Below, one piece after another: positions 20,411 through 31,538 of a stretch of DNA of 64,000 nucleotides. Position numbers and translations under genes: made by a program. The stretch lies in UHGV virus genome UHGV-0293664; one strand, written 5' to 3'. This DNA is from a virus. A model generated the notes under the pieces. That model had not been told where the DNA came from. It was given only the letters and a program-made list of their open reading frames with translations, and searched no databases. Numbering within the stretch: the stretch's first letter is position 1; each line of letters opens with the position of its first letter.

Positions 20411-20440
20411 AAAAAGGGGCCGTTTGGCCCCTTTCTTTTT
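20411..20440. terminator. Bidirectional rho-independent terminator between convergent operons
   Basis: A-run, GGGGCC-GTTT-GGCCCC hairpin, T-run. Confidence 0.8.
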
Positions 20441-20444
20441 ATAA

Positions 20445-20645
20445 TTAGTAATATTCCCAACACGACCCATCTTCAGACGGCTGGACACGCTTACCTTCAT
20501 GATCGACATAGGTGTAACCACAGCCTTCACAGATAACAGGTGCCGCATAACCTTCCTTCCACTGCTTCTCCGTGATCAATCCTTTCAGATCTCCGCAGTC
20601 ACGACCAAACAACTCTTCAGAACAGTCTTTACAAAAATCAGCCAT
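20445..20645 (-). CDS. Small zinc-ribbon-like protein
   Basis: 66 aa; CxxC...C...CxxC pattern. Confidence 0.45.
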   Translation of the reverse strand: MADFCKDCSEELFGRDCGDLKGLITEKQWKEGYAAPVICEGCGYTYVDHEGKRVQPSEDGSCWEYY

Positions 20646-20714
20646 CTCTATCAGTCTCCATATTTAACCAATCTGTATTACATATTGCCGAAGAAACAGT
20701 ATTTCATTTCATCA

Positions 20715-20933
20715 TTACAGATCTCCAACAACTTCCCAAATACCCCAGTGAGCATCCATATCCTTGATAAAGTATCTTTCTCCACGGTTTGTCCACACAC
20801 CTATCCCAACTTTACCATCTATCCCATTGTATACATCTGCCTCATACTCTTTGCCCGGTGTAAAGTGTACACCCATCATAAGGGCTGTTATTCCGTTAGG
20901 ATTTTTAAATTTAACAAATTTTACTTTGCTCAT
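20715..20933 (-). CDS. Small hypothetical protein
   Basis: 72 aa; shares IKDxDxxWG-type motif with small proteins near the polymerase gene. Confidence 0.45.
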   Translation of the reverse strand: MSKVKFVKFKNPNGITALMMGVHFTPGKEYEADVYNGIDGKVGIGVWTNRGERYFIKDMDAHWGIWEVVGDL

Positions 20934-20934
20934 A

Positions 20935-21264
20935 TTACTTAATCCTTGCAGTTACAGTAGCGCTATACCCCATGTAGTTATGAGACATAAAGAATGTAAG
21001 CCCTTTAAGTTCAGGATTCTTTCTAAGAAATCGTTTCAATTTTCGAATGCAATTAACACCATGATCATAGTTTGAGAAATTAAATTTAATACCCTGCTCT
21101 ATCATAGTGCACACTTCTTCATGGGTATGCCATTGTCTATCGTGGTCACAAAACCAGTAACCAATACTTTCTTTTTCTTGGATATGCAACCCCCAAAATA
21201 CTTTATGCATTGGATATTTTGGTTTTCTACCATGATAATGTAGTTTAATATTCACATGTGCCAT
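20935..21264 (-). CDS. Hypothetical protein
   Basis: 109 aa; His/Cys-rich; 1-nt gap to downstream gene. Confidence 0.45.
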   Translation of the reverse strand: MAHVNIKLHYHGRKPKYPMHKVFWGLHIQEKESIGYWFCDHDRQWHTHEEVCTMIEQGIKFNFSNYDHGVNCIRKLKRFLRKNPELKGLTFFMSHNYMGYSATVTARIK

Positions 21265-21434
21265 TTTTTTGTTACTCCGTTCTGTATCTGTGATAATGAG
21301 AATAGCAAACTGGAGTGTGTGCTGTCAACAACATTTTTTAAGCGTTTTGGGGAAGTTTTTTGAAAGGTGGGTGTAATCACAAGAGGGGGTAGAGTTATTG
21401 AAGGCACAGGCCTCGTTTGAGGCCTTAAAACAGA

Positions 21435-21815
21435 TTATGATGCTTTGACGTAGCGCTCTGACAAAGCTGGGAAGCCAAAAGCAGCACCTACACTGCCGTA
21501 CGCTATCCACCATTGAAGTTCATCGTGACACCATTTTCCGATCAGAAAGGTGCTGGGGTAGCGGGTCAATATTTTGGCATAAGCTTTAGGGTCTGCATCC
21601 TCTGGGATAATGATGCTTGGAACATCTTTGTTATGACCACAGCAGCAGTTTAGAGTTTTCAATCCTGCCGCCCATAGACTCATGATAGGCTTAGCCATGC
21701 ACTTATCAAGGCACACACGTTTTTTGCCGTCTCGAAGTTTTTTAGGCACATCAACGATAACATTTGGATGCTTGGCACCTTTCACTTTCCAATTATAGGA
21801 TTTACACTTGCACAT
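21435..21815 (-). CDS. Cys-rich hypothetical protein
   Basis: 126 aa; CxC...C...CCCGH cluster; GGAG RBS 9 nt upstream. Confidence 0.45.
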   Translation of the reverse strand: MCKCKSYNWKVKGAKHPNVIVDVPKKLRDGKKRVCLDKCMAKPIMSLWAAGLKTLNCCCGHNKDVPSIIIPEDADPKAYAKILTRYPSTFLIGKWCHDELQWWIAYGSVGAAFGFPALSERYVKAS

Positions 21816-21941
21816 TTAATCAGTCTCCGTCTAGAAAGCTCTGTAACTAAAATGATGCACAAAACTACCTAGCAATGCAATCTTATGCCTGCGGTGAGTT
21901 AAGTGCGCTACAGGGACTCCTGTTGCGTTTTAAGGCATATT

Positions 21942-22112
21942 TTACTTAAAGTCTTTATCACCTGCCACGATTGCATGAATCCACTCATTGTGATGCTTAA
22001 TAGCGGTGAGATGTAACATGATGTAGTGATCGTCATTGCCAAACATGGTATGATAGGCTTTGGCAGCATTTTGATATAACTTCCACATCAGGTAATAATA
22101 TCTTCGCCTCAT
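21942..22112 (-). CDS. Small hypothetical protein
   Basis: 56 aa ORF below track cutoff; ATG with GGAG about 10 nt upstream. Confidence 0.3.
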   Translation of the reverse strand: MRRRYYYLMWKLYQNAAKAYHTMFGNDDHYIMLHLTAIKHHNEWIHAIVAGDKDFK

Positions 22113-22117
22113 GGCTC

Positions 22118-22582
22118 TTACTCCGGTTCAGGATCTGGGTAATCTTCAATAATAAAGGGCCATCCGTTCCGCTTAGCCTCAGACTTATACTCGATCTCCT
22201 TCATTGCAAACTCTAACTGATTCTTAGCCGGAATACATGCCGGAGAATCATCAATCCAGATATCTGGGTAGATATCAAACTGCGCCAGATAGGCTGCCTT
22301 CTGAACACCCCCAGTATAAAACACACCAACATCAAGCTCCTTGCGCCAATACTCAATGTCTACATTGTCTTGAGTAATGAATCGGGAAGTCACAAGGTAG
22401 ACTGTCCACCCCTCCTTCTTCAGATCCCTGATCAGGCGGGAGAAGATGAAAGGGCTCGCATTAAACGTTCCATCAAAGTCAATGGCAATGATGTGCGTGC
22501 CGTGGCGAGTCTCATATGGATTGCTCGTGGTAAGATTGCTGTAGTTAAAAGGAACTTCTTCCCCGCAGTAGCTGTAGTCCAT
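22118..22582 (-). CDS. HAD-family phosphatase (5'-nucleotidase-like)
   Basis: IIAIDFDGTF motif I (DxDxT); start ATG 22582 preferred over in-frame GTG 22588. Confidence 0.6.
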   Translation of the reverse strand: MDYSYCGEEVPFNYSNLTTSNPYETRHGTHIIAIDFDGTFNASPFIFSRLIRDLKKEGWTVYLVTSRFITQDNVDIEYWRKELDVGVFYTGGVQKAAYLAQFDIYPDIWIDDSPACIPAKNQLEFAMKEIEYKSEAKRNGWPFIIEDYPDPEPE

Positions 22583-22584
22583 AT

Positions 22585-22860
22585 TCACACCTTCTCGTTG
22601 ATAAATTTACGGGCGGTTTGGTGAGTTGTTTCTGCTGTCTTCAGAATGATGTTAATTTTATTGTCAAGATCATTCATCTCTGCAGTTAATTCAGGAATCT
22701 CTCCGGCGTGCATAGTGAAATCATACATAGACATGCCCAGAATCTCATTGATGCGGCGGTTGCATTCTGCAGCACGCTGGTTCATTTTCCAAGCTAACAC
22801 CAAAGCCTCCTGCGTAGCCTCTAGTGCAAAATCTAATACGTCGGCCTCTTCTTTCGTCAT
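22585..22860 (-). CDS. Hypothetical helical protein
   Basis: 91 aa; ATG start. Confidence 0.45.
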   Translation of the reverse strand: MTKEEADVLDFALEATQEALVLAWKMNQRAAECNRRINEILGMSMYDFTMHAGEIPELTAEMNDLDNKINIILKTAETTHQTARKFINEKV

Positions 22861-22917
22861 GTCAGTCTCTCCTGTTGTATTGTTGGTAGGTGTATGAATA
22901 CCTTATAACTCACCTTT

Positions 22918-23484
22918 TTATTCAAACTGCAATAGTAAATCCACCACCGCGCTAGGTCTGTCAACAAATTCCCCTGGTCCACATGCCCATAAAGGGTATC
23001 CGTCTACATACCGCCAAATCCAACCTGCAGTGTGGAGTTCGAGCAGGGCAGTACCGTCCTTACTGTCAACCACTCTTTCCCACAGTGTCGGGCAGCGAAG
23101 CTTGAGGATCGGATCCCCTCCCTTATACCCGTCCATGTAGATACCCATTGCAAAGTTCAGCATCATCTTTTTGTGCACCGATCTCTTACTGAGAGTGCTC
23201 ATCACTTCCTCTTTGTGAATGTTTGTAAGCTTCTCCTTGGCTATCCGCAGATCGTTGCAACCATTGTTCAGCAAATCTTCTAGACACCTGATCCGAAGGT
23301 CGTGAATGTCTTTGTCGTGTACCGTTGGCACAGGGTCGTAGCGGTATAGCACTGTTGATACAAGGTTGCTCGGGTGTGGGTCTGACAGCAACCCATAACC
23401 CCAATACTCTTCTGTATCTGAAAGGACAAGACACCCAATGTCTCTGTCAAGCTTTCCTGTGTTGTAAGCCACATTGACCGCCAT
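22918..23484 (-). CDS. Hypothetical protein
   Basis: 188 aa; ATG start. Confidence 0.45.
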   Translation of the reverse strand: MAVNVAYNTGKLDRDIGCLVLSDTEEYWGYGLLSDPHPSNLVSTVLYRYDPVPTVHDKDIHDLRIRCLEDLLNNGCNDLRIAKEKLTNIHKEEVMSTLSKRSVHKKMMLNFAMGIYMDGYKGGDPILKLRCPTLWERVVDSKDGTALLELHTAGWIWRYVDGYPLWACGPGEFVDRPSAVVDLLLQFE

Positions 23485-23486
23485 GA

Positions 23487-23732
23487 CTATAGCTCCACTA
23501 GCAAAGTGCTTTCAAAGTGCCGTTCATGCAGACCGTTGTAAGGGACCACCTCCACAACGCCATCACGAACATATGGGGTCATCATAGTGGTATAATCTCC
23601 AAACGGGTTGGTATTGTCACTAACCACAACCACCTTCTGCCCTTCCTTGGCAGAGTGCCAAATAGATCTGCACTTCATCAGGTGTTCGAGAGCTCCAGGT
23701 AAAATTTTGTTACGTTCTTTACGGGTCTTCAT
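23487..23732 (-). CDS. Hypothetical protein
   Basis: 81 aa; 2-nt gap to downstream gene. Confidence 0.45.
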   Translation of the reverse strand: MKTRKERNKILPGALEHLMKCRSIWHSAKEGQKVVVVSDNTNPFGDYTTMMTPYVRDGVVEVVPYNGLHERHFESTLLVEL

Positions 23733-24178
23733 AACAGGTATAGCTCCTTATGAAAGTGATCTTTTAATTTCTCACTGAGAAACTTCTTGATACCTTCCTC
23801 TAAAGTGTTTTCGATGTAGTCCAGCTTAACTGCTTCGATAGACATATCATAGATCGCCAGCTCTAAGCTGTCAAGTCCCATCATAGCATGAACCATAAGA
23901 TTTTCATCTTCAGATACATTCAGGGGACTTCCTATAACATCTGGAGGCAGAATAGTTTCCCAATTATTCTGGGTGGTAGTTCTCCCCCCCTCTGCTTTAC
24001 GGCGCAGTTCGAATGTGTTCTTAGTATAGAACACTTCATAAGAAACGATACGACTGTCGCTCTCATAATAAACGAAGTTCAGGTAGGAGCCTAGCCGCAG
24101 TCGGCAAACTTCCACCCCAAACCATTGTTTCTTATAAGAATTCAGGCTAATGCTGTCGCATTCACGTTTGCTCAACAC
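23729..24178 (-). CDS. Hypothetical protein
   Basis: 149 aa; GTG start with AGGAGA RBS. Confidence 0.45.
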   Translation of the reverse strand: MLSKRECDSISLNSYKKQWFGVEVCRLRLGSYLNFVYYESDSRIVSYEVFYTKNTFELRRKAEGGRTTTQNNWETILPPDVIGSPLNVSEDENLMVHAMMGLDSLELAIYDMSIEAVKLDYIENTLEEGIKKFLSEKLKDHFHKELYLL

Positions 24179-24194
24179 GGCTCTCTCCTTTTTG

Positions 24195-24428
24195 TTAATC
24201 TTCGTAAATCAGGATTTCTGCTTTAGGTTTTCGTGCTTTCAGATCCAGCTCTATCCAATGCACCATGGCTGTTTCAAGAAAAACAGCCTGGATGCATCCG
24301 TCCTCAGCGTGCCCTACCAACATAACAAGATCTTCACCTTCGTCATCTGCATCACGAACATACAGAATCTCTCCAGATTCAAAGTCTTTCACAACCTGAT
24401 TGCTGGATAATTTACGAATTTTTGCCAT
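24195..24428 (-). CDS. Small protein, tandem paralog 4 (most divergent)
   Basis: 77 aa; last of four head-to-tail small genes. Confidence 0.5.
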   Translation of the reverse strand: MAKIRKLSSNQVVKDFESGEILYVRDADDEGEDLVMLVGHAEDGCIQAVFLETAMVHWIELDLKARKPKAEILIYED

Positions 24429-24429
24429 A

Positions 24430-24693
24430 TCAGAAACCCTCTAAAAAGCTCTTGTAGAAAACAATCTCAGTGTCCACACCAGTCACAATCTTGTCGTTCC
24501 TGATTTCATCGGTAAGATAGGTGTCAAAACGCAGAACCTGTGTGGTGTTGTCACACATCCACTCAGCTGTGACCATTGCGAAAATCTTAGCATCTTCATT
24601 ATCCGGTGTAAATGTTACCACCTCACCGCATTTAAACTTTTCGATAGGTTGAGTGTTAGCTTTCGGCTCTGCGATAGTGATTTTTGTGGTCAT
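24430..24693 (-). CDS. Small protein, tandem paralog 3
   Basis: 87 aa; CGEVV and FD motifs shared with neighbours; start overlaps upstream stop. Confidence 0.5.
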   Translation of the reverse strand: MTTKITIAEPKANTQPIEKFKCGEVVTFTPDNEDAKIFAMVTAEWMCDNTTQVLRFDTYLTDEIRNDKIVTGVDTEIVFYKSFLEGF

Positions 24694-24956
24694 TATTCTC
24701 CTCCTTGTTTTGAATAGCTTGTCTCTCCAAGGATGGTAATTTTGGTATCAAGCTCTGTAACTTTCATGTTTGGTGGCAGATCGTACAACTCCTTATTTTC
24801 TAAATCGAACCCCCACACACAATGTTCTCCTGTTTTGACAATCATAACTATGTTTTGAATGCCGTCTCCGTCGCAACTTACCACGGTCCCACACGGAAAA
24901 CTATCTGCACGCTTTTTGTTCTTCACCTTAGAATTGAATACAATGCTAGTAGCCAT
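24693..24956 (-). CDS. Small protein, tandem paralog 2
   Basis: 87 aa; MAT...K.KK...GTVV...WGFDL...VTELD...ILGE shared with paralog 1. Confidence 0.55.
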   Translation of the reverse strand: MATSIVFNSKVKNKKRADSFPCGTVVSCDGDGIQNIVMIVKTGEHCVWGFDLENKELYDLPPNMKVTELDTKITILGETSYSKQGGE

Positions 24957-25219
24957 TATTGTTCCTCCACCATAACTTCGCCAAGAATTTCTATGCAGGC
25001 ATCCATTTCTGTAACAACCAAGGTGTGAGGTAGTTCTGCAAACACCTTTCTGAACAGGTCAAATACCCCAACATATATGTTTGCAGGATGTGATTTTACA
25101 ACAAGTGCTGTATTCACATCCCCAAGTTCATCAACAAACATCACCACAGTGCCTGGAGCTACTGAAGACAGATACTTCTTAGTTTTACGGTTTGATGCAA
25201 ATTTTAACTCTGTTGCCAT
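24956..25219 (-). CDS. Small protein, tandem paralog 1
   Basis: 87 aa; AAGGAGG RBS; same length and motifs as paralog 2. Confidence 0.55.
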   Translation of the reverse strand: MATELKFASNRKTKKYLSSVAPGTVVMFVDELGDVNTALVVKSHPANIYVGVFDLFRKVFAELPHTLVVTEMDACIEILGEVMVEEQ

Positions 25220-25234
25220 AAATAATCTCCTCCT

Positions 25235-26716
25235 TTATTTAGCGTACTCGATTAATTCCACAGTTTTCCCAAAGCTCGGGATATAATTTTTATTATACCC
25301 CTCGGTGAGAACCCATAAAGTATCGTACTTTTTCCACTTGTTGTCAACAGCCTTTTGTTCAAAGTTATGCTCAAAGTATAGGTCGGTCAGGACGATGACA
25401 TCTTTTGCATTCGGTATATTGGCATCCAGATACTCGAACACGCAAGCAGCTGTTGTGCCCCATGTTGAGTGGACCTCATAGTTGATCATCTCATCTATGT
25501 TACCGCGAGTGTATACTTTAACCTCTCCAACCTCAGTTGACCAACAGAACATTGTAACCTTAAACTCTTTATACAGATTGCACAATCCGGTGATTTCATT
25601 GAACATTTTCTTTAAAGTTCTTTGAGAGATCGAGCCAGAAACGTCTAAAGCCACCACAATATCTATGGTGTTTTCCGGATTACGACCAGGAACAATAACG
25701 TGCTGGTTCTTGTTTATAGCCCCAACTTTTCGCATTGTGCTGGTCAAAGACCCAGATCGGCGACCAGGTTTTCTGTAGGTCAGTTCAGCCTTTCGTTTAG
25801 ACAACATGCGTTGCTTAATGATATCTATATAGTTGATTACAGGCTTGCCTCTGTTCTTGACAAACTCACGCACCGCCTCAGGGCAACGACCTCCGGAAGC
25901 TTGCATTGCTGCCTCCAGCATGTCACCAGAATCCTGCATGGCCTGATCTTTATCAGATTGGCTGATTACAGGTTGTGGCCGATCATACCCCATAGCCTTC
26001 CCAAGATCATCGCTGGTGCCACCGTTCCCGCTCATGTGATCATCGGTTTGTCGCTTATCTCCTTGGGAGTTATCACCTTTACCGCTCTTACTTTTACCGT
26101 TATTTTGATCTCTTTGCCTATCAAGAACTGCATAGACGTTCTCAGCAATCCATCCATGAAACTTCATGTCGCAGTAGCAGCTGGCTAAGAAACCAAAAGG
26201 CTTACCTTTTACGAACGTAGTGCTTTTCCCCTTCGGGAAGAAAACACAAGGGGGCTTGCTAAAGTCAACCACAAGACCTGTGTTGATAACGTGATCACAA
26301 GCAATATTGAACAGTTCCGGCTCAAAGCTTTTGCCACGGACCAGGTGATCACAGATAATATGCCCCACCTCATGTGACAGAAGGAAAGCCACCTCTTTCA
26401 CAGATTTGGGGGAATAGAAAACTTCAGCCATCTCAAACTGCTCTCCAGTTAGAGAGGCCTTGAGAATAGCCTTGCGTTCATCAGCCAACCCCATAATGAA
26501 CTCAGGACTGTAATAGATGCGTTTATGGTCGGTTGCCATGGTGGAGCACCATGTGTGGTTTTCTACGAACTGTAACCCTGACAGCAGTGTGCCATAAAAC
26601 GGCAGCTTTTCAAGGAGATACATACGTGCAGCCTGTAACATTCTCAGGGCATCATCTTTCTGTGAGGCAATGATTTCTGAACTTCTGCTATCCATTAAAA
26701 CTCCAGAAGGGGCCAT
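25235..26716 (-). CDS. vWA-domain protein with N-terminal zinc-metallopeptidase motif
   Basis: 493 aa; HEVGH (HExxH) and VVALDVSGSIS (MIDAS DxSxS). Confidence 0.7.
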   Translation of the reverse strand: MAPSGVLMDSRSSEIIASQKDDALRMLQAARMYLLEKLPFYGTLLSGLQFVENHTWCSTMATDHKRIYYSPEFIMGLADERKAILKASLTGEQFEMAEVFYSPKSVKEVAFLLSHEVGHIICDHLVRGKSFEPELFNIACDHVINTGLVVDFSKPPCVFFPKGKSTTFVKGKPFGFLASCYCDMKFHGWIAENVYAVLDRQRDQNNGKSKSGKGDNSQGDKRQTDDHMSGNGGTSDDLGKAMGYDRPQPVISQSDKDQAMQDSGDMLEAAMQASGGRCPEAVREFVKNRGKPVINYIDIIKQRMLSKRKAELTYRKPGRRSGSLTSTMRKVGAINKNQHVIVPGRNPENTIDIVVALDVSGSISQRTLKKMFNEITGLCNLYKEFKVTMFCWSTEVGEVKVYTRGNIDEMINYEVHSTWGTTAACVFEYLDANIPNAKDVIVLTDLYFEHNFEQKAVDNKWKKYDTLWVLTEGYNKNYIPSFGKTVELIEYAK

Positions 26717-26728
26717 TGGCCCCTGTTA

Positions 26729-27718
26729 TTATTTAACGTGTTTGAAAATACCTGCCAACTCGGTCATTGTCATGCGGGTGGTCTTCATAAGATCTGTCAT
26801 AGCTTTCTCCATAATTGGGGATACTACCATAAAGTTTCCTTTAGTGAAACCTTTATTCCAGTCGGTCACCAACAGTGGTTTAAGTCCAGCTCCGAGACGT
26901 TCACCAGTTAAAGCACAACATTTTCGAATGTATGTGCTCTTAAACTGGCTGAATGACAGATCCACTTTCATACCTGCATCGTAGAACGTCTGGCAATAGA
27001 AAGTGTAAGCTTTGGCAATCTCAACATCGTCAGGCAGTGCAGGAACCTCTTCTGTAAGCTCTTCTTCGACCCCTTGAGGCTCTTTTTCCTCTTCGTAAGC
27101 CTGTTGCGTCATCTCTTCAATCTCCTCTACTACAGGCTCGTTTACAATGTCAGAAATGTGCTTGTTGGCTCCACGATTAGCCATGAAGTTTTTAAAATCC
27201 TGCATTGGTGACATATCTTCCTCCCATTCTTCGTCAAAGAGTGCCAGTTTATCCTCTTCCGTTCCATATTGCAAGATGAAATCTTCAAAAGTGTAATCAC
27301 CTTTCAATTTCTCCATACGCTCTTCGCTCAGGTGGAGCATCATCTGCTGGACAATTTTTCGATCAGTTTTGTCTTTAATCAAGACTGCGGTCTTTTTATC
27401 TACCAGACAGTCCTTTAGAGAGTTGCATCTCAACCCTACCACACAACAGTTATCAACCGCATAAGGGCCTTCATCATCTATCCGCTCTAGAGATGGGTAG
27501 AAAGGATTTCCCAGTCCGTTTTCATCCGTGTGCATGTCGAAAGGTATAAGGGTATAGTCGCATACTCCATCTCCTAAAAGTTTTTTACCAAATAGGAGAT
27601 ATTCTTCCCATGACAGGTTGAACTCTATATCTCGTTTCCGTGCATTATTCTGTTTGCGTCTGTATTTTTTGAGCAAGCGCTCTAACTCTTCTGGTGTATA
27701 ATATTTTTCAAGATTCAT
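26729..27718 (-). CDS. Putative HNH-like (endonuclease VII-type) nuclease with acidic linker
   Basis: FNLSWEEYLLF...C...ERIDDEGPYAVDNCCVV module, weaker second copy; ATG 27718 preferred over in-frame TTG 27784. Confidence 0.4.
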   Translation of the reverse strand: MNLEKYYTPEELERLLKKYRRKQNNARKRDIEFNLSWEEYLLFGKKLLGDGVCDYTLIPFDMHTDENGLGNPFYPSLERIDDEGPYAVDNCCVVGLRCNSLKDCLVDKKTAVLIKDKTDRKIVQQMMLHLSEERMEKLKGDYTFEDFILQYGTEEDKLALFDEEWEEDMSPMQDFKNFMANRGANKHISDIVNEPVVEEIEEMTQQAYEEEKEPQGVEEELTEEVPALPDDVEIAKAYTFYCQTFYDAGMKVDLSFSQFKSTYIRKCCALTGERLGAGLKPLLVTDWNKGFTKGNFMVVSPIMEKAMTDLMKTTRMTMTELAGIFKHVK

Positions 27719-27749
27719 GAGTTGTCTCTTGTGCTCTGTGGGTGGAGAA

Positions 27750-27778
27750 ATCTTACCAAGGGCCTGGGAAGATGTCAA
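27750..27778 (-). promoter_or_regulatory. sigma70-like promoter for leftward operon
   Basis: On minus strand TTGACA, 17-nt spacer, TAAGAT. Confidence 0.5.
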
Positions 27779-27791
27779 CCTCAAAAACGTG

Positions 27792-27820
27792 TTGACTTTA
27801 CTCTAAATCCTCGATATAGT
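27792..27820 (+). promoter_or_regulatory. sigma70-like promoter for rightward operon
   Basis: TTGACT, 17-nt spacer, TATAGT. Confidence 0.6.
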
Positions 27821-27860
27821 GCACCCATTCGAAAGAAAACTAGCATAGGAGTACTTATTC

Positions 27861-28760
27861 ATGGCAAATCTTAACAGTTTTAGCACCAGGTGGCAACAGG
27901 ATATAACAACCAATCTTTCAGCTGGAGATATCCTTTCTGCAATTTACGAGGCTTTGGATGATAAAGCTACTTCAAGATCGGTTTGTACTAATCCGCTAAT
28001 TCCTATAGTGATGAAGGTAATTGAGCGGAGGTTGGTATCCGGGTCTGATAAGTGGACATACCTTGATAATGGAGGGCATACTTACTCCAACGGATATGTT
28101 GATATAAAAGTGGAATACGCAGTATCATACCGCCGGAGCGGTTCTGTAACTTTCAACTTCTCTGGAGGTTTTCGATCTCTGGCTACTTCACCTTTTGTTT
28201 CCTCAGAGGAGAAGTATGAGCTGCCATTTCTTTGGATGATGGCTAACGCGACAGGAAAAACCCCCGTTAGCATCCGAGTAAAATACAACTACAACGGATC
28301 TAGTAAGATCTATGCCGAAAGTGCCTCAGCAAGTTTTTATTTTGTGATGGGGGATGGAATCCTCAAACATATAAAGATGTGCGATATGCATGATGTTATA
28401 AATGAAGTGACTGATAAGAATGTTCTAGTGAAAGACCTCAATAATTTTTATACACCTGGAGACTATTACGTCAACCGCCCACTGTGCATCTTTAATGCCG
28501 CACACCCTTTAGGTGAGTATTTGATCGCCAATAGCGATATTGCCAATAACCGCTTCGAGGTAGCAAGAGTACAGAATGAGGTATTGACATCTTGCAAGAG
28601 CGGTGATAAGTTTACCGAAGAAGAGATGGGTGTTTTAGAAATGATGGGATATAAGTGTAGCCTTTGGGTAGATGAGGTGTTTAATGACTGCATCTATGGA
28701 CAGGATATTTACCCGTTAAAGAAGTATACTGATTCCAGTTTAATTTACGCGGAGATTTGA
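27861..28760 (+). CDS. Hypothetical protein
   Basis: 299 aa; AGGAG RBS. Confidence 0.55.
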   Translation: MANLNSFSTRWQQDITTNLSAGDILSAIYEALDDKATSRSVCTNPLIPIVMKVIERRLVSGSDKWTYLDNGGHTYSNGYVDIKVEYAVSYRRSGSVTFNFSGGFRSLATSPFVSSEEKYELPFLWMMANATGKTPVSIRVKYNYNGSSKIYAESASASFYFVMGDGILKHIKMCDMHDVINEVTDKNVLVKDLNNFYTPGDYYVNRPLCIFNAAHPLGEYLIANSDIANNRFEVARVQNEVLTSCKSGDKFTEEEMGVLEMMGYKCSLWVDEVFNDCIYGQDIYPLKKYTDSSLIYAEI

Positions 28761-28762
28761 CT

Positions 28763-29035
28763 ATGATGAAGTCATGTGGTAGTGTATATTATGTTGGTGA
28801 GAATGTTCAGGCAGACAGCGTGTGGAAATCCATTAAGTCTACCACCGACGATGCCTTCTTGAGCGGGTTATGTTTTCCCAGCCCTGGGGACACTCTCCCT
28901 TACCCTGGAGATTTTGTTGTCAACAAGATGGACGGTTATACCGTGTGCCTGATGGTTGAAAAAATCTTTTTAGACACTAGACACAATCACCGTCTTGTGT
29001 TAAAATTTCAAGAATGTAAAATGACAATTGCCTAA
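28763..29035 (+). CDS. Small hypothetical protein
   Basis: 90 aa; ATG 28763 preferred over track TTG 28757. Confidence 0.45.
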   Translation: MMKSCGSVYYVGENVQADSVWKSIKSTTDDAFLSGLCFPSPGDTLPYPGDFVVNKMDGYTVCLMVEKIFLDTRHNHRLVLKFQECKMTIA

Positions 29036-29048
29036 GGAGGCCTTGCCT

Positions 29049-29405
29049 ATGTCTAAAGTTACGTATCGTGCAGCTATTTACTGCAATGAACACCCAATCA
29101 ATAATGATGGTCACTGCCTTTTTAAAGAAAATCAGTTGGGCTGTATTGTCCTCCCTGATGAAGGGAAAGGTTATCTGATTGCATTGACAGGGTTTGAGCC
29201 TGAAGCTTTGGAAGCCAATCTGGACTACCTGGTAGAAGAGGGTGCTGCAGACCTGGTTGCCAATGGCCTCTCCATAAACCTTGACGAAGTGGAGCGCTTC
29301 ATGGGCAATTACCGTGTAGTGCGTGAGTTTACTATCGAGGTGGAAACTCCAGAGTGGGGTAGCCCTGAAACTAATACCGAAGAAAAAGAAGAGGAGGTAG
29401 AATAA
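29049..29405 (+). CDS. Small acidic protein
   Basis: 118 aa; ATG 29049 with AAGGAGG RBS; Glu-rich C-terminus. Confidence 0.5.
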   Translation: MSKVTYRAAIYCNEHPINNDGHCLFKENQLGCIVLPDEGKGYLIALTGFEPEALEANLDYLVEEGAADLVANGLSINLDEVERFMGNYRVVREFTIEVETPEWGSPETNTEEKEEEVE

Positions 29406-29662
29406 TGAAAGTGCAGATTTTGACTAATGCCGAGAAGATGTTTATTGAAGATACACCTTTTGAAGCTGGTGAGCTACAGTTCGTTTATTTTGTTGACTTA
29501 GATAAGGTGTTCCCTGCACTGAATCTGGGTCTGGATGAAGTTCCTCATAAGGTTTTGTGCCAAGTTGTTCGTGCTTTAGCGGCAGATGGGGAGTTCCACA
29601 CTCTTGAAGATATCCAGACCTACGGGTATCTTGAACTACAACGAGAAGAAGAGGTGGATTGA
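29405..29662 (+). CDS. Small acidic protein
   Basis: 85 aa; TAATG overlap with upstream gene. Confidence 0.5.
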   Translation: MKVQILTNAEKMFIEDTPFEAGELQFVYFVDLDKVFPALNLGLDEVPHKVLCQVVRALAADGEFHTLEDIQTYGYLELQREEEVD

Positions 29663-29664
29663 TA

Positions 29665-30045
29665 ATGGCCCGATGGAAGACAACGGTTGACCTGCATGAT
29701 CAGTGGTTAGGACGCATCACTGAAGACGGGAAACTAGTAGAGTGGGACAATAAACATGTCAGCGAGTTGGCAAGTATTGTGGCTGGCAAGTTACGCTCCA
29801 AGTTCCCTGAACAACTGGATCCTGATAATTCAAAGTTCGATCCTGAGTTGGAGGATGTTGTATACTACTTCGATACCGTGGATGACTACGATGCGTGGTT
29901 TGCAGCACGGGAGCTTTACCCACAAGGCTCCGCTATGCGTCAGATGGAAGAAGATTATCCTCCGTGCGAGCAATTCAATAGCGCAATGACTTGCCTCTAT
30001 GATTGGGCAGATAAGAACCTTGTCTGGATCCGGACTGCATTCTAG
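29665..30045 (+). CDS. Small acidic protein
   Basis: 127 aa; ATG 29665 with GAGGTGG RBS. Confidence 0.5.
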   Translation: MARWKTTVDLHDQWLGRITEDGKLVEWDNKHVSELASIVAGKLRSKFPEQLDPDNSKFDPELEDVVYYFDTVDDYDAWFAARELYPQGSAMRQMEEDYPPCEQFNSAMTCLYDWADKNLVWIRTAF

Positions 30046-30051
30046 CAGGCT

Positions 30052-30354
30052 GTGGCAAGGATGCCACTTAAAAGAGTAATAAGCATGTTATACCAGAAAC
30101 ACAAACTTTGTGCAGAAAAAGAGTTAAATTTTGACAAAGTTATCCACAGATATTGTTATGGGAAAACCGGAAGACAACTAAGAAGGTGTACCCCAACATT
30201 CTTTCACCCCAGTAGACGGCTAAGTCCTGAAGAAGCAACAGCAGAAAGGGTTGCATACAACTGGGAAGTTGTGTACGATATTGACAGATCCGATGTGGCA
30301 TCTGTTTTGGAAAACTTTGAAAACACTTACACACAAGTAGAGGACTTTTACTAA
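30052..30354 (+). CDS. Hypothetical protein
   Basis: 100 aa; start uncertain (GTG 30052 or ATG 30061); stop overlaps AAA gene start. Confidence 0.4.
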   Translation: MARMPLKRVISMLYQKHKLCAEKELNFDKVIHRYCYGKTGRQLRRCTPTFFHPSRRLSPEEATAERVAYNWEVVYDIDRSDVASVLENFENTYTQVEDFY

Positions 30355-31538
30355 TGTCAAGAAACGTATTTGAAAGTGGTCAAATCACTGTCCGTGAGTT
30401 GCCAGCTATCATTCAGTTTGCCCAGCGTCATAACCGATCTGTCCTGATTTTAGGACCAATGGGCGTGGGGAAGAGCCAGGTGATGAAGCAGATTGCCGAT
30501 AATATGTTCGGTGAGCGAGATGACAACCTGGTTGACGTGCGACTGTCAGATAAAGATCCTGCCGACTTATCTGGGCTACCTATCCCTGTAGAAGCGGATG
30601 GAACTACACGTACAGTGTTTGCAATTCCAGAATTCTGGCCTGCAGATCCAGACTGGAGCGGGATTATCTTTCTGGATGAGCTTACTCATGCAGATAACTA
30701 TCTACAAAAGGTTGCAATGCAGATTATGCTCGACCACAAGTGCGGCACCTATGCATTCCCTAAAGGCTCTGTTTTTGTGGCTGCGGGTAACCGTTCTACA
30801 GATGGTGCGGTTCTTTCGGCGCTCGAAGCCCCTCTGGCTAACCGTTTTATCATTGTAGAAGTTACAAGCAATGCAGAGGTGTTTATTGAGGACTACGCAT
30901 TCCTTAATGGGGTGCATTCCTCTGTAATTGGGTATCTGAAAAGAGTTCCATCAGCTATCGATAATTATGAGGCTATGGCTGAGATTAATTGTCCATCTTT
31001 TGCCACACCGCGATCTTGGGTTGCTGCATCTGACATCTTGCACGATTTTGACAGCGGTATTATTTCTGACGCTATGGCCCGTGTTCTTCTGCAAGGTGCT
31101 ATTGGTCACACTGCAGCGGTAGAGATCTGGACCTACCACACCAAGAAACGCAACTTACCGGAAATCGGTCGGATTATGGCAGGGGGTTGCAAAGAATACG
31201 TAGGTCCTAAACAGCCAGACATTTTGTGGATTCTTGGATCTGAAGGTTGTATCGCTATTCGTAATATGATGGAAAATGCAAGTATCTCCGACGAAGATCT
31301 TGTCAGCTGCGTGGCAAACTTCCTCGATTTCCTTTGGGAAAACTTCAAAGACGAGAACCGAGATTTTGTATTCTCAGTCTTTATGGCGATGATGAAACCT
31401 AATGCCTTAGGAAATGCCTTGCTTATCGGTAAAGGGCGTGACAAGATTGTTGCTCAGCTGATCAAAGCATACCCAAACCTGATGAAGATTGTAAAAGAGT
31501 TTGGTGAAGAGTTTAGCGCCATTTTGGCTAAAGCTTAA
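30354..31538 (+). CDS. AAA+ ATPase, MoxR/CobS-like
   Basis: Walker A LILGPMGVGKSQ, Walker B IIFLDELTHA. Confidence 0.7.
   Translation: MSRNVFESGQITVRELPAIIQFAQRHNRSVLILGPMGVGKSQVMKQIADNMFGERDDNLVDVRLSDKDPADLSGLPIPVEADGTTRTVFAIPEFWPADPDWSGIIFLDELTHADNYLQKVAMQIMLDHKCGTYAFPKGSVFVAAGNRSTDGAVLSALEAPLANRFIIVEVTSNAEVFIEDYAFLNGVHSSVIGYLKRVPSAIDNYEAMAEINCPSFATPRSWVAASDILHDFDSGIISDAMARVLLQGAIGHTAAVEIWTYHTKKRNLPEIGRIMAGGCKEYVGPKQPDILWILGSEGCIAIRNMMENASISDEDLVSCVANFLDFLWENFKDENRDFVFSVFMAMMKPNALGNALLIGKGRDKIVAQLIKAYPNLMKIVKEFGEEFSAILAKA

Follow-up and report, generated by a model that had tools for sequence, protein, structure and literature searches.

The locus analysed here raises the question whether a phage peptidase and the array of small proteins encoded directly behind it work together. 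It lies in a 64,000-nucleotide stretch of the virus genome UHGV-0293664 (the window, to which all coordinates refer unless another genome is named). In it, a gene for a protein with both a zinc-metallopeptidase signature and the metal ion-dependent adhesion site (MIDAS) motif of a von Willebrand factor A (vWA) domain is followed on the same strand by four small genes, termed s1 to s4 in the following (24195-26716). An original prediction, made from the sequence without database searches, had regarded this arrangement as one functional unit, such as a peptidase with a family of processed effectors or inhibitors, and had been unable to place it in any known system. As described below, the large protein could be placed as an N4 gp25-like vWA/zincin metallopeptidase with an AAA+ ATPase as its conserved partner. 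The locus as a whole is, on balance, probably best explained as a vWA/zincin–ATPase machine that lies beside an independent family of small accessory proteins.

The large protein belongs to a widespread type of phage vWA/zincin proteins

The gene of the large protein (25235..26716, minus strand) is the equivalent of rV5 gp012/013 and matches phrog_1314 with an E-value of 2.6e-122. The motifs HEVGH and DVSGSIS, on which the original prediction was based, were both found in the translation, and their interpretation was confirmed by Pfam matches to DUF2201_N (PF13203; E 4.3e-28, 99.1 bits with a cut-off of 23.2, residues 95–321) and DUF2201 (PF09967; E 3.5e-11, 43.7 bits with a cut-off of 26.4, residues 353–488), the two domains following each other in the expected N-to-C order. 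HEVGH (26360..26374, minus strand) occupies residues 115–119 and is the predicted zinc-binding and catalytic motif; H115, E116, H119, D123 and H124 are invariant in six Vequintavirinae homologs. DVSGSIS (25625..25645, minus strand) forms the DxSxS part of the MIDAS, of which D358, S360, S362, T418/T421 and D445 are likewise invariant. Vequintavirinae homologs down to 45% identity thus retain HExxHxxxDH as well as all elements of the MIDAS (DxSxS, T, D). When the window protein was used as a tblastn query, homologs were detected in 695 phage records, including proteins described as 'N4 gp25-like' and proteins of RaK2, 121Q, PA5oct and phage G. Judged by its sequence, the large protein is thus a vWA/zincin subunit of a known and widespread kind. 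A relationship to CobT, which the original prediction had named as an outcome that would speak against it, was not seen: no CobT family match was obtained in Pfam, and VWA_CoxE reached 13.7 bits, below its cut-off of 26.4. The PDB sequence search returned no solved structure related to the vWA/zincin protein, and nothing informative on this protein or the small proteins was obtained from PADLOC, NCBIfam and PDB sequence searches.

The length of 493 amino acids given originally holds for the longest open reading frame, which begins at the first ATG. The true start is probably the second ATG at 26695, yielding 486 amino acids, because the first ATG lies inside a perfect GC-rich hairpin (AGGGGCCAATGGCCCCT, 26708-26724) and has no Shine–Dalgarno sequence, whereas the second is preceded by GGAG at a distance of 6 nt and coincides with the start annotated in GenBank relatives and with that of the divergent L007 homolog. 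The hairpin AGGGGCCAATGGCCCCT is found directly past the stop codon of the upstream Srd-like gene and is annotated as a terminator in Murica; it could act as an attenuator or RNA-stability element between the Srd-like and vWA genes.

Existing annotations of this gene differ. In the rV5 reference genome (L090, NC_011041; 5257-6718 of that genome) the vWA gene is present as two overlapping open reading frames, gp012 and gp013, and as one intact gene in all relatives; the split in rV5 is due either to a sequencing error or to a frameshift of the isolate. phrog_1314 carries the label 'HNH endonuclease' in PHROGs, as does the protein in several RefSeq records (annotations of L005, L006, NC_041869 and NC_041871), although Pfam finds no HNH domain in the protein. 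A label 'tail protein' is attached to g149 (phrog_6790), the gene behind the array, and to phrog_10489, the gene located in front of the vWA gene in sister genera. Both labels look like propagated mis-annotations.

An AAA+ ATPase is the conserved partner of the vWA/zincin protein

Co-occurrence of neighbouring genes was analysed in 90 loci, which were taken from GenBank relatives, from metagenome contigs and from 80 IMG/VR contigs. In 85 of these loci, the vWA gene was accompanied by a homolog of the AAA+ ATPase that is encoded in the window. In four of the five loci lacking it, the vWA gene is situated within ~350 nt of the contig end, which does not apply to the fifth (L068). Outside the Vequintavirinae, all 69 loci with an ATPase gene have it upstream of the vWA gene and on its strand, mostly at a distance of 600 nt or less, while in the Vequintavirinae it is found in the divergent arm, 3.6–5.2 kb from the vWA gene. 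The arrangement in the window is of the latter type, with the ATPase gene (30354..31538, plus strand; rV5 gp004) lying 3.6 kb away on the opposite strand. By co-occurrence, the AAA+ ATPase is the conserved partner of the vWA protein.

The ATPase appears to be MoxR/Midasin-like and is N4 gp24-like (phrog_1297, E 1.4e-110), with the Walker A motif GPMGVGKS and the Walker B motif IIFLDE, and G37, G39, K40, S41, D108 and E109 are invariant in 15 homologs. A family profile built from 15 sequences matched Midasin AAA domains with E 2.3e-26, compared to 1e-6 for the next family, the Clp ATPases; in GenBank and in the literature the protein is named MoxR. Because of the co-occurrence, the Walker motifs and the Midasin profile match, the ATPase and the vWA/zincin protein are, by analogy, best read as a split, Midasin-like AAA+/MIDAS machine to which a zincin domain has been added. 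As in MoxR–vWA systems and Midasin, the ATPase would provide the mechanical work and the MIDAS site would hold an acidic residue of a client protein, which the fused HExxH domain would then cut; this mechanism we infer from the analogy with those systems.

A gene for a 100-amino-acid protein (30052-30354, plus strand; phrog_13164) precedes the ATPase gene and overlaps it by 1 nt with its stop codon. It bears the label 'ATPase' without an evident ATPase domain, and homologs are found beside the ATPase gene also in a divergent lineage (L091). Its product may be a further partner of the ATPase.

The four small genes form one family

Coordinates and junctions confirmed four head-to-tail genes of 77–87 codons, overlapping or spaced by 1 nt, all on the minus strand. 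The stop codon of the vWA gene and the ATG of s1 (24956..25219; 87 amino acids, phrog_10698) are separated by 15 nt that include AGGAGG. s1, the first copy in what is described below as a variable slot, encodes a small acidic protein with an isoelectric point (pI) of 5.0. It is joined to s2 (24693..24956; 87 amino acids, also phrog_10698), and s2 to s3 (24430..24693; 87 amino acids, phrog_12861, the equivalent of rV5 gp015), by TAATG with a 1-nt overlap, and s3 to s4 (24195..24428; 77 amino acids, phrog_12046, the equivalent of rV5 gp016) by TGAtATG with a 1-nt gap.

Relatedness of the four proteins was analysed with hhalign. s1 and s2 share 39% identity over their full length (probability 98%, P 1e-13). 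For the comparison with s3 and s4, the profiles were expanded by adding orthologs and variant sequences of metagenomes and related phages. The s1/s2-type profile then aligned to the divergent s3 over 74–81 columns with P 2.5e-7 to 3.8e-7, and an s1/s2/s3-type profile aligned to s4, the most divergent copy, over 67–74 columns with P 4e-6 to 1.5e-5. The similarity of s4 is weak in simple pairwise comparison. An empirical null, obtained by running the same profile against all 189 open reading frames of 60–130 amino acids in the window, placed s4 directly after the three other members: it scored 31.4, the next best open reading frame 17.7 (mean 9.4, standard deviation 1.9). s1 to s3 are therefore certainly paralogs at the sequence level, and s4 is very probably a fourth one. 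The motifs GTVV, WGFDL, VTELD and ILGE, which had originally been ascribed to all four, are present literally in s1 and s2 and only in degenerate versions in s3 and s4, but tandem amplification and diversification as such is borne out by hhalign and the empirical null.

The structure model of s2 is confident and shows an SH3-like beta-barrel with an N-terminal hairpin. For s4, an AF2 model that drew on near-identical s4 orthologs alone had its strands in the same order, at moderate confidence (pLDDT 69.7), and in Foldseek its match to family members was weak (rank 5, E 0.11). Extended from these two models to the whole family, the prediction for s1–s4 is that of small acidic proteins which are probably SH3-like beta-barrels (family pI 4.5–5.3). 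Conserved positions in the barrel are G23, D51 and D70 of s2, the two aspartates corresponding to D54 and D73 of s1, together with an invariant Ile just after, and the C-termini are the least conserved part of the proteins. In an exhaustive search, a protein of 1095 amino acids (P0028) produced 10 repeated but weak matches (E 1.2e-5) to the middle part of the family profile; it may be a repeat protein of similar hairpins or a beta-repeat artefact, and was treated as a likely repeat artefact.

The small genes have strong ribosome-binding sites, the array is intact in 118 genomes, and comparison with the divergent relative L007 gave ratios of nonsynonymous to synonymous substitution rates (dN/dS) of 0.02–0.2, indicating purifying selection. 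s1 is 57% identical to its L007 ortholog (dN/dS ~0.2), while s3 is 98–99% identical in L007 and rV5 (dN/dS 0.02). Positive selection on s1 and s2 was considered and discarded, as the crude dN/dS is ~0.2 and synonymous sites are saturated relative to L007. The low divergence of s3 and s4 is accompanied by lower dS, which suggests mosaic recombination. A comparable mosaic was seen over the whole region 20445-31538 in comparison with L007: dS is saturated in most genes, but reaches only 0.07–0.6, with 92–99% amino acid identity, in s3, s4 and g126–g66, which indicates that sub-blocks recombined recently.

The small-gene family was inserted behind the vWA gene and varies in copy number

Only 24 clusters were recovered when 5.8e9 proteins were searched with the family, and a set of 1.84 billion representatives gave 7 hits; all hits for which the genomic context was examined were from rV5-like phages. 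In the sister genera (Av-05, 4MG, Iguana and Hena1 types) the family is absent. The gene that follows the array in the window, g149 (23729..24178, minus strand; phrog_6790, rV5 gp017), is, in Vequintavirinae, the neighbour that ancestrally followed the vWA gene: in Av-05, 4MG and Iguana its homologs directly follow or overlap the vWA stop codon (phmmer E 2e-11 to 5e-8), and in Hena1, where phmmer gave no match, g149 was assigned by position. Since sister genera without the family have g149 directly after the vWA gene, the array is an insertion into an older vWA–g149 junction.

The block varies among related phages, a point that the original prediction had proposed to examine, and one, three or four copies were found. 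A divergent metagenomic lineage (L091/L097–L100), whose vWA protein is 62% identical, has a single small gene after the vWA gene; rV5 and 73 other records have three (gp014, gp015 = s3 and gp016 = s4); and the window and 43 other records have four. This difference between three and four copies corresponds to slot 1, which holds two copies in 44 of 118 genomes and one in the other 74. Slot 1 moreover behaves as a swappable cassette comprising the bodies of s1 and s2 (24704..25205, minus strand). Pairwise blastn placed the breakpoints at the first and last few codons; in rV5 the cassette is replaced by ~230 nt, while the flanks are 94–96% identical. The single rV5 cassette gene, gp014, encodes 85 amino acids and shares only 39–40% identity with each of s1 and s2. 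In L094, L101 and L102, which form a further lineage with contigs of ~139 kb (L101/L102 type: IMGVR_UViG_3300045988_140627 and _159287), a family member lies beside a homolog of g126 in a region with genes for dihydrofolate reductase and a phosphatase, and no vWA, Srd or g149 homolog was found within 5 kb of it. The family would thus have entered the slot between the vWA gene and g149 as a single gene, tandem duplication would then have raised the number to three or four in rV5-like phages, and slot 1 would now be an exchangeable cassette.

Two candidate relatives of the array in other phages were rejected. The first, phrog_10489, is a gene for ~87 amino acids that precedes the vWA gene in sister genera; it resembles the family in a motif recognised by eye only (GxxV…IVLF…W[GA]F). 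Hidden Markov model iteration found nothing, hhalign gave P 0.0015–0.008 over 37 columns only, and the empirical null gave the four phrog_10489 members ranks of 2, 22, 25 and 59 out of 195. The second, a small partner conserved behind the vWA gene outside the rV5 lineage, was rejected because small genes are common at this position but belong to unrelated families. In the loci L016-L089, a ~90-amino-acid GFE[DE] family lies right after the vWA gene in 16 loci, a ~80-amino-acid IYESPDGGKT family in 13 and a ~115–140-amino-acid family in 6, unrelated to one another and to s1–s4. As other lineages thus have their own unrelated families, a small gene after the vWA gene is a common and unspecific feature.

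The array is part of a probable early gene block

In the 3.9 kb around the locus, the window shares 95–96% nucleotide identity with rV5-like myophages of E. coli (Vequintavirus; EmilHeitz, APECc02, Murica and others), and 119 records match this region. The vWA gene and s1–s4 are located within a minus-strand block which is bounded by a divergent promoter region at ~27.72–27.86 kb and by a bidirectional terminator at 20411–20436, and with which a sign change of the GC skew coincides exactly. The divergent intergenic region (27719..27860) contains sigma70-like promoters for both arms, with promoter-like sites at 27778–27750 (minus strand) and 27792–27820 (plus strand), and corresponds to promoter P11 in the rV5 annotation. 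The first gene of the minus-strand block (26729..27718, minus strand; start according to the EmilHeitz annotation) encodes a Srd-like 'anti-sigma' protein, as judged from phrog_3118, the Srd and sigma70-decoy PHROGs and the rV5 paper. Of the 15 junctions in this block, 10 measure 16 nt or less, and for this reason the close spacing of the vWA and s genes is uninformative.

Several further observations were made in this region. Both early arms (27861-30045, plus strand, and 20445-24178, minus strand) are packed with small, mostly acidic ORFan genes with pI values of 4.0–5.3 in the rV5 table, overlapping or nearly abutting stops and starts, and one PHROG of unknown function apiece. A second non-homologous replacement between the window phage and rV5 was found in the g109/g72 region (20672-21373 in the window, 10235-10723 in L090, the rV5 gp025 region), which is another variable slot of the same early block. 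In a divergent rV5-like metagenomic phage, a TnpB/OrfB_IS605-like gene (Cas12f1-like_TNB; L091/L092, 4119-5258) is inserted in the divergent promoter region between the early arms. Finally, 16 GenBank records of the MG0656xx series, described as 'Campylobacter phage' with C. jejuni given as host, are 93–98% identical to E. coli rV5-like phages at this locus and probably result from contamination or mislabelling.

Do the small proteins act with the ATPase–vWA machine?

We lean towards the view that the small family consists of lineage-specific accessory early proteins that bind other proteins. s1–s4 would be produced from the sigma70 early promoter together with the rest of the block, and would bind host or phage proteins, in the manner of host takeover or counter-defence factors, independently of the peptidase. 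Several points, however, weigh against this view and the description of the machine on which it is built. Wherever the vWA–g149 arrangement and the family coexist, one or more members are found 11–16 nt past the vWA stop codon, and this placement recurs in three lineages with vWA proteins of only 62–82% identity, a positional conservation that exceeds what random insertion of accessory genes would need. Several members end in an acidic tail of low model confidence (…VEEQ, …MEEE, …EGEE, …YED), which, from its sequence, could be a MIDAS ligand. The early timing assumed for the block is deduced from promoter-like motifs and the rV5 annotation only, the MoxR label of the ATPase has to be reconciled with the 16.7 bits that the window protein alone reaches against Pfam AAA_5 (cut-off 22), and the literature yielded neither an experimentally determined function of the ATPase–vWA pair or of rV5 gp12–17 nor biochemical results on peptidase activity or metal-dependent ligand binding.

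The first of these points are also what speaks for a functional unit of the kind originally suggested. In such a unit the ATPase–vWA–peptidase machine would have the small SH3-like proteins as its clients, adaptors or inhibitors; they might, for instance, be interchangeable MIDAS ligands by which it is directed to one target or another, or pro-proteins that its zincin domain trims. The short distance to the vWA stop codon and the strong Shine–Dalgarno sequence make co-translation possible, acidic disordered C-terminal tails occur in 6 of ~10 sequence types, and diversification of slot 1 would suit changing targets. The MIDAS domain of Midasin, to which the ATPase is related by profile, holds small folded domains via an acidic residue and thereby sets a precedent. 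On the other hand, none of the other phages that encode an ATPase–vWA pair, be they sister genera, N4-like phages or jumbo phages, has the family. The cassette was exchanged without the vWA gene, whose flank is still 94% identical, and no vWA gene lies within 5 kb of the family member in L101, L102 and L094. Nor do all members carry the acidic tail, as P0029 ends in AHR, s3 in EGF and P0026 is basic; close spacing is usual in this block; and neither a conserved cleavage-like motif nor any other evidence of processing was seen. A unit of peptidase and paralogs deduced from adjacency and translational coupling is hence unlikely to exist as proposed.

A more specific form of this idea, in which the s proteins are interchangeable adaptors or ligands for the MIDAS of the split Midasin-like machine, has to be regarded as a long shot. 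Here the acidic tail would dock on the MIDAS ion and the barrel surface would choose a host or phage target, which would then undergo ATP-driven extraction and cleavage; duplication in slot 1 and cassette swaps would retarget the machine in the course of an arms race.

It is highly improbable that the small proteins are morphogenetic factors, i.e. scaffold, chaperone or minor virion proteins that work with the ATPase–vWA pair in assembly. A role of MoxR–vWA pairs in virion assembly was proposed in PMC7824862, and the 'tail protein' labels on phrog_6790 (g149) and phrog_10489 would point in the same direction, but these labels have no traceable support. The genes reside in a block read from a sigma70 promoter and separated from the structural genes by the bidirectional terminator, the rV5 gene table contains no virion mass-spectrometry evidence for gp12–17, and restriction to one lineage with variable copy number is unlike morphogenetic genes. 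That the small open reading frames are non-functional, their resemblance being due to chance or decaying duplication, is effectively refuted, for despite the lack of any Pfam or NCBIfam match and the weak pairwise similarity of s4, the low dN/dS relative to L007, the intact reading frames in 118 genomes, the strong ribosome-binding sites, the profile similarity far above the empirical null and the confidently predicted fold all argue against it.

Taken together, these results suggest that s1–s4 have an accessory role in rV5-like phages and are neighbours of the ATPase–vWA/zincin machine rather than parts of it.

Implications

N4-like and rV5-like phages have few core genes in common with each other and with many jumbo phages, and the ATPase–vWA/zincin pair is among these. 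The two proteins described here are ordinary representatives of this known and widespread phage module. The unity of the s family across three PHROGs, its tandem expansion and the cassette polymorphism do not seem to have been described, as nothing on them was found in the literature. Tandem ORFan expansions, however, are commonplace in phage early regions, and if the small proteins are unrelated to the machine, which is the likelier case, the array is an ordinary example of these. Its practical value would then be that three PHROGs can be merged into one family, that slot 1 can serve as a polymorphic marker among Vequintavirus genomes, and that the 'HNH endonuclease' and 'tail protein' labels can be corrected. 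If the barrels were ligands of the machine, rV5-like phages would offer a tractable entry point to it, with four natural variants of which one is swappable.

Comparison with known systems

The small proteins resemble the SH3-like or Tudor-like ORFans of phage early regions in size and predicted fold, with Foldseek TM scores of 0.6–0.7 to N4 gp21 (BFVD) and to many phage proteins of 70–90 amino acids. Homology to N4 gp21, suggested by the Foldseek hit, was rejected, since hhalign gave P 0.12 and the likeness is one of generic fold only. As the SH3-like fold is generic, no function can be transferred from it.

In peptide-processing systems of the 'FxSxx-COOH' type, a zincin peptidase and a small precursor are encoded beside MoxR–vWA ternary systems (PMC7159879). 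What the locus has in common with them is a MoxR–vWA setting in which a zincin-type peptidase is encoded beside small proteins that diverge rapidly. Unlike these precursors, however, the s proteins are predicted folded beta-barrels without a conserved C-terminal peptide and early gene products of one phage lineage, and the peptidase is fused to the vWA domain. Considered as precursors of this type, the s proteins do not qualify, their C-termini being the least conserved part and their body being predicted to fold.

Midasin/Rea1 and the pairs RavA–ViaA, CbbQ–CbbO, NorQ–NorD and CoxD–CoxE combine an AAA+ ATPase of the MoxR/Midasin clade with a MIDAS-containing vWA protein, as the phage pair probably does, and the MIDAS residues are intact in the phage protein. 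The logic of MoxR–vWA systems is the ATP-driven remodelling of a client held at the MIDAS (PMC7159879). In contrast to the phage vWA protein, RavA–ViaA, CbbQ–CbbO, NorQ–NorD and CoxD–CoxE are without an N-terminal HExxH peptidase domain, and the phage ATPase differs from the Midasin/MoxR systems in remaining below the Pfam AAA_5 threshold.

The closest counterparts are found in other phages. In jumbo phages, the same architecture was described as a MoxR AAA+–vWA chaperone/cochaperone pair with an N-terminal metallopeptidase, for which a role in virion assembly was proposed (Iyer et al. 2021, PMC7824862). A function in the maturation of virion proteins has been put forward in the literature. 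In N4-like phages, gp24 (AAA ATPase) and gp25 (vWFA) are among 14 core genes and are functionally uncharacterised (PMC4193335; PMC2784036). Both pairs agree with the one described here in their two protein families, in the DUF2201_N and DUF2201 architecture and in the co-occurrence of the ATPase. They differ in that the Vequintavirinae genes belong to divergent transcription units 3.6–5.2 kb apart, whereas in other phages the vWA gene is closely preceded by the ATPase gene. In N4 a dCTP deaminase gene follows the vWA gene, at the position that the array of small paralogs occupies in the rV5 lineage.

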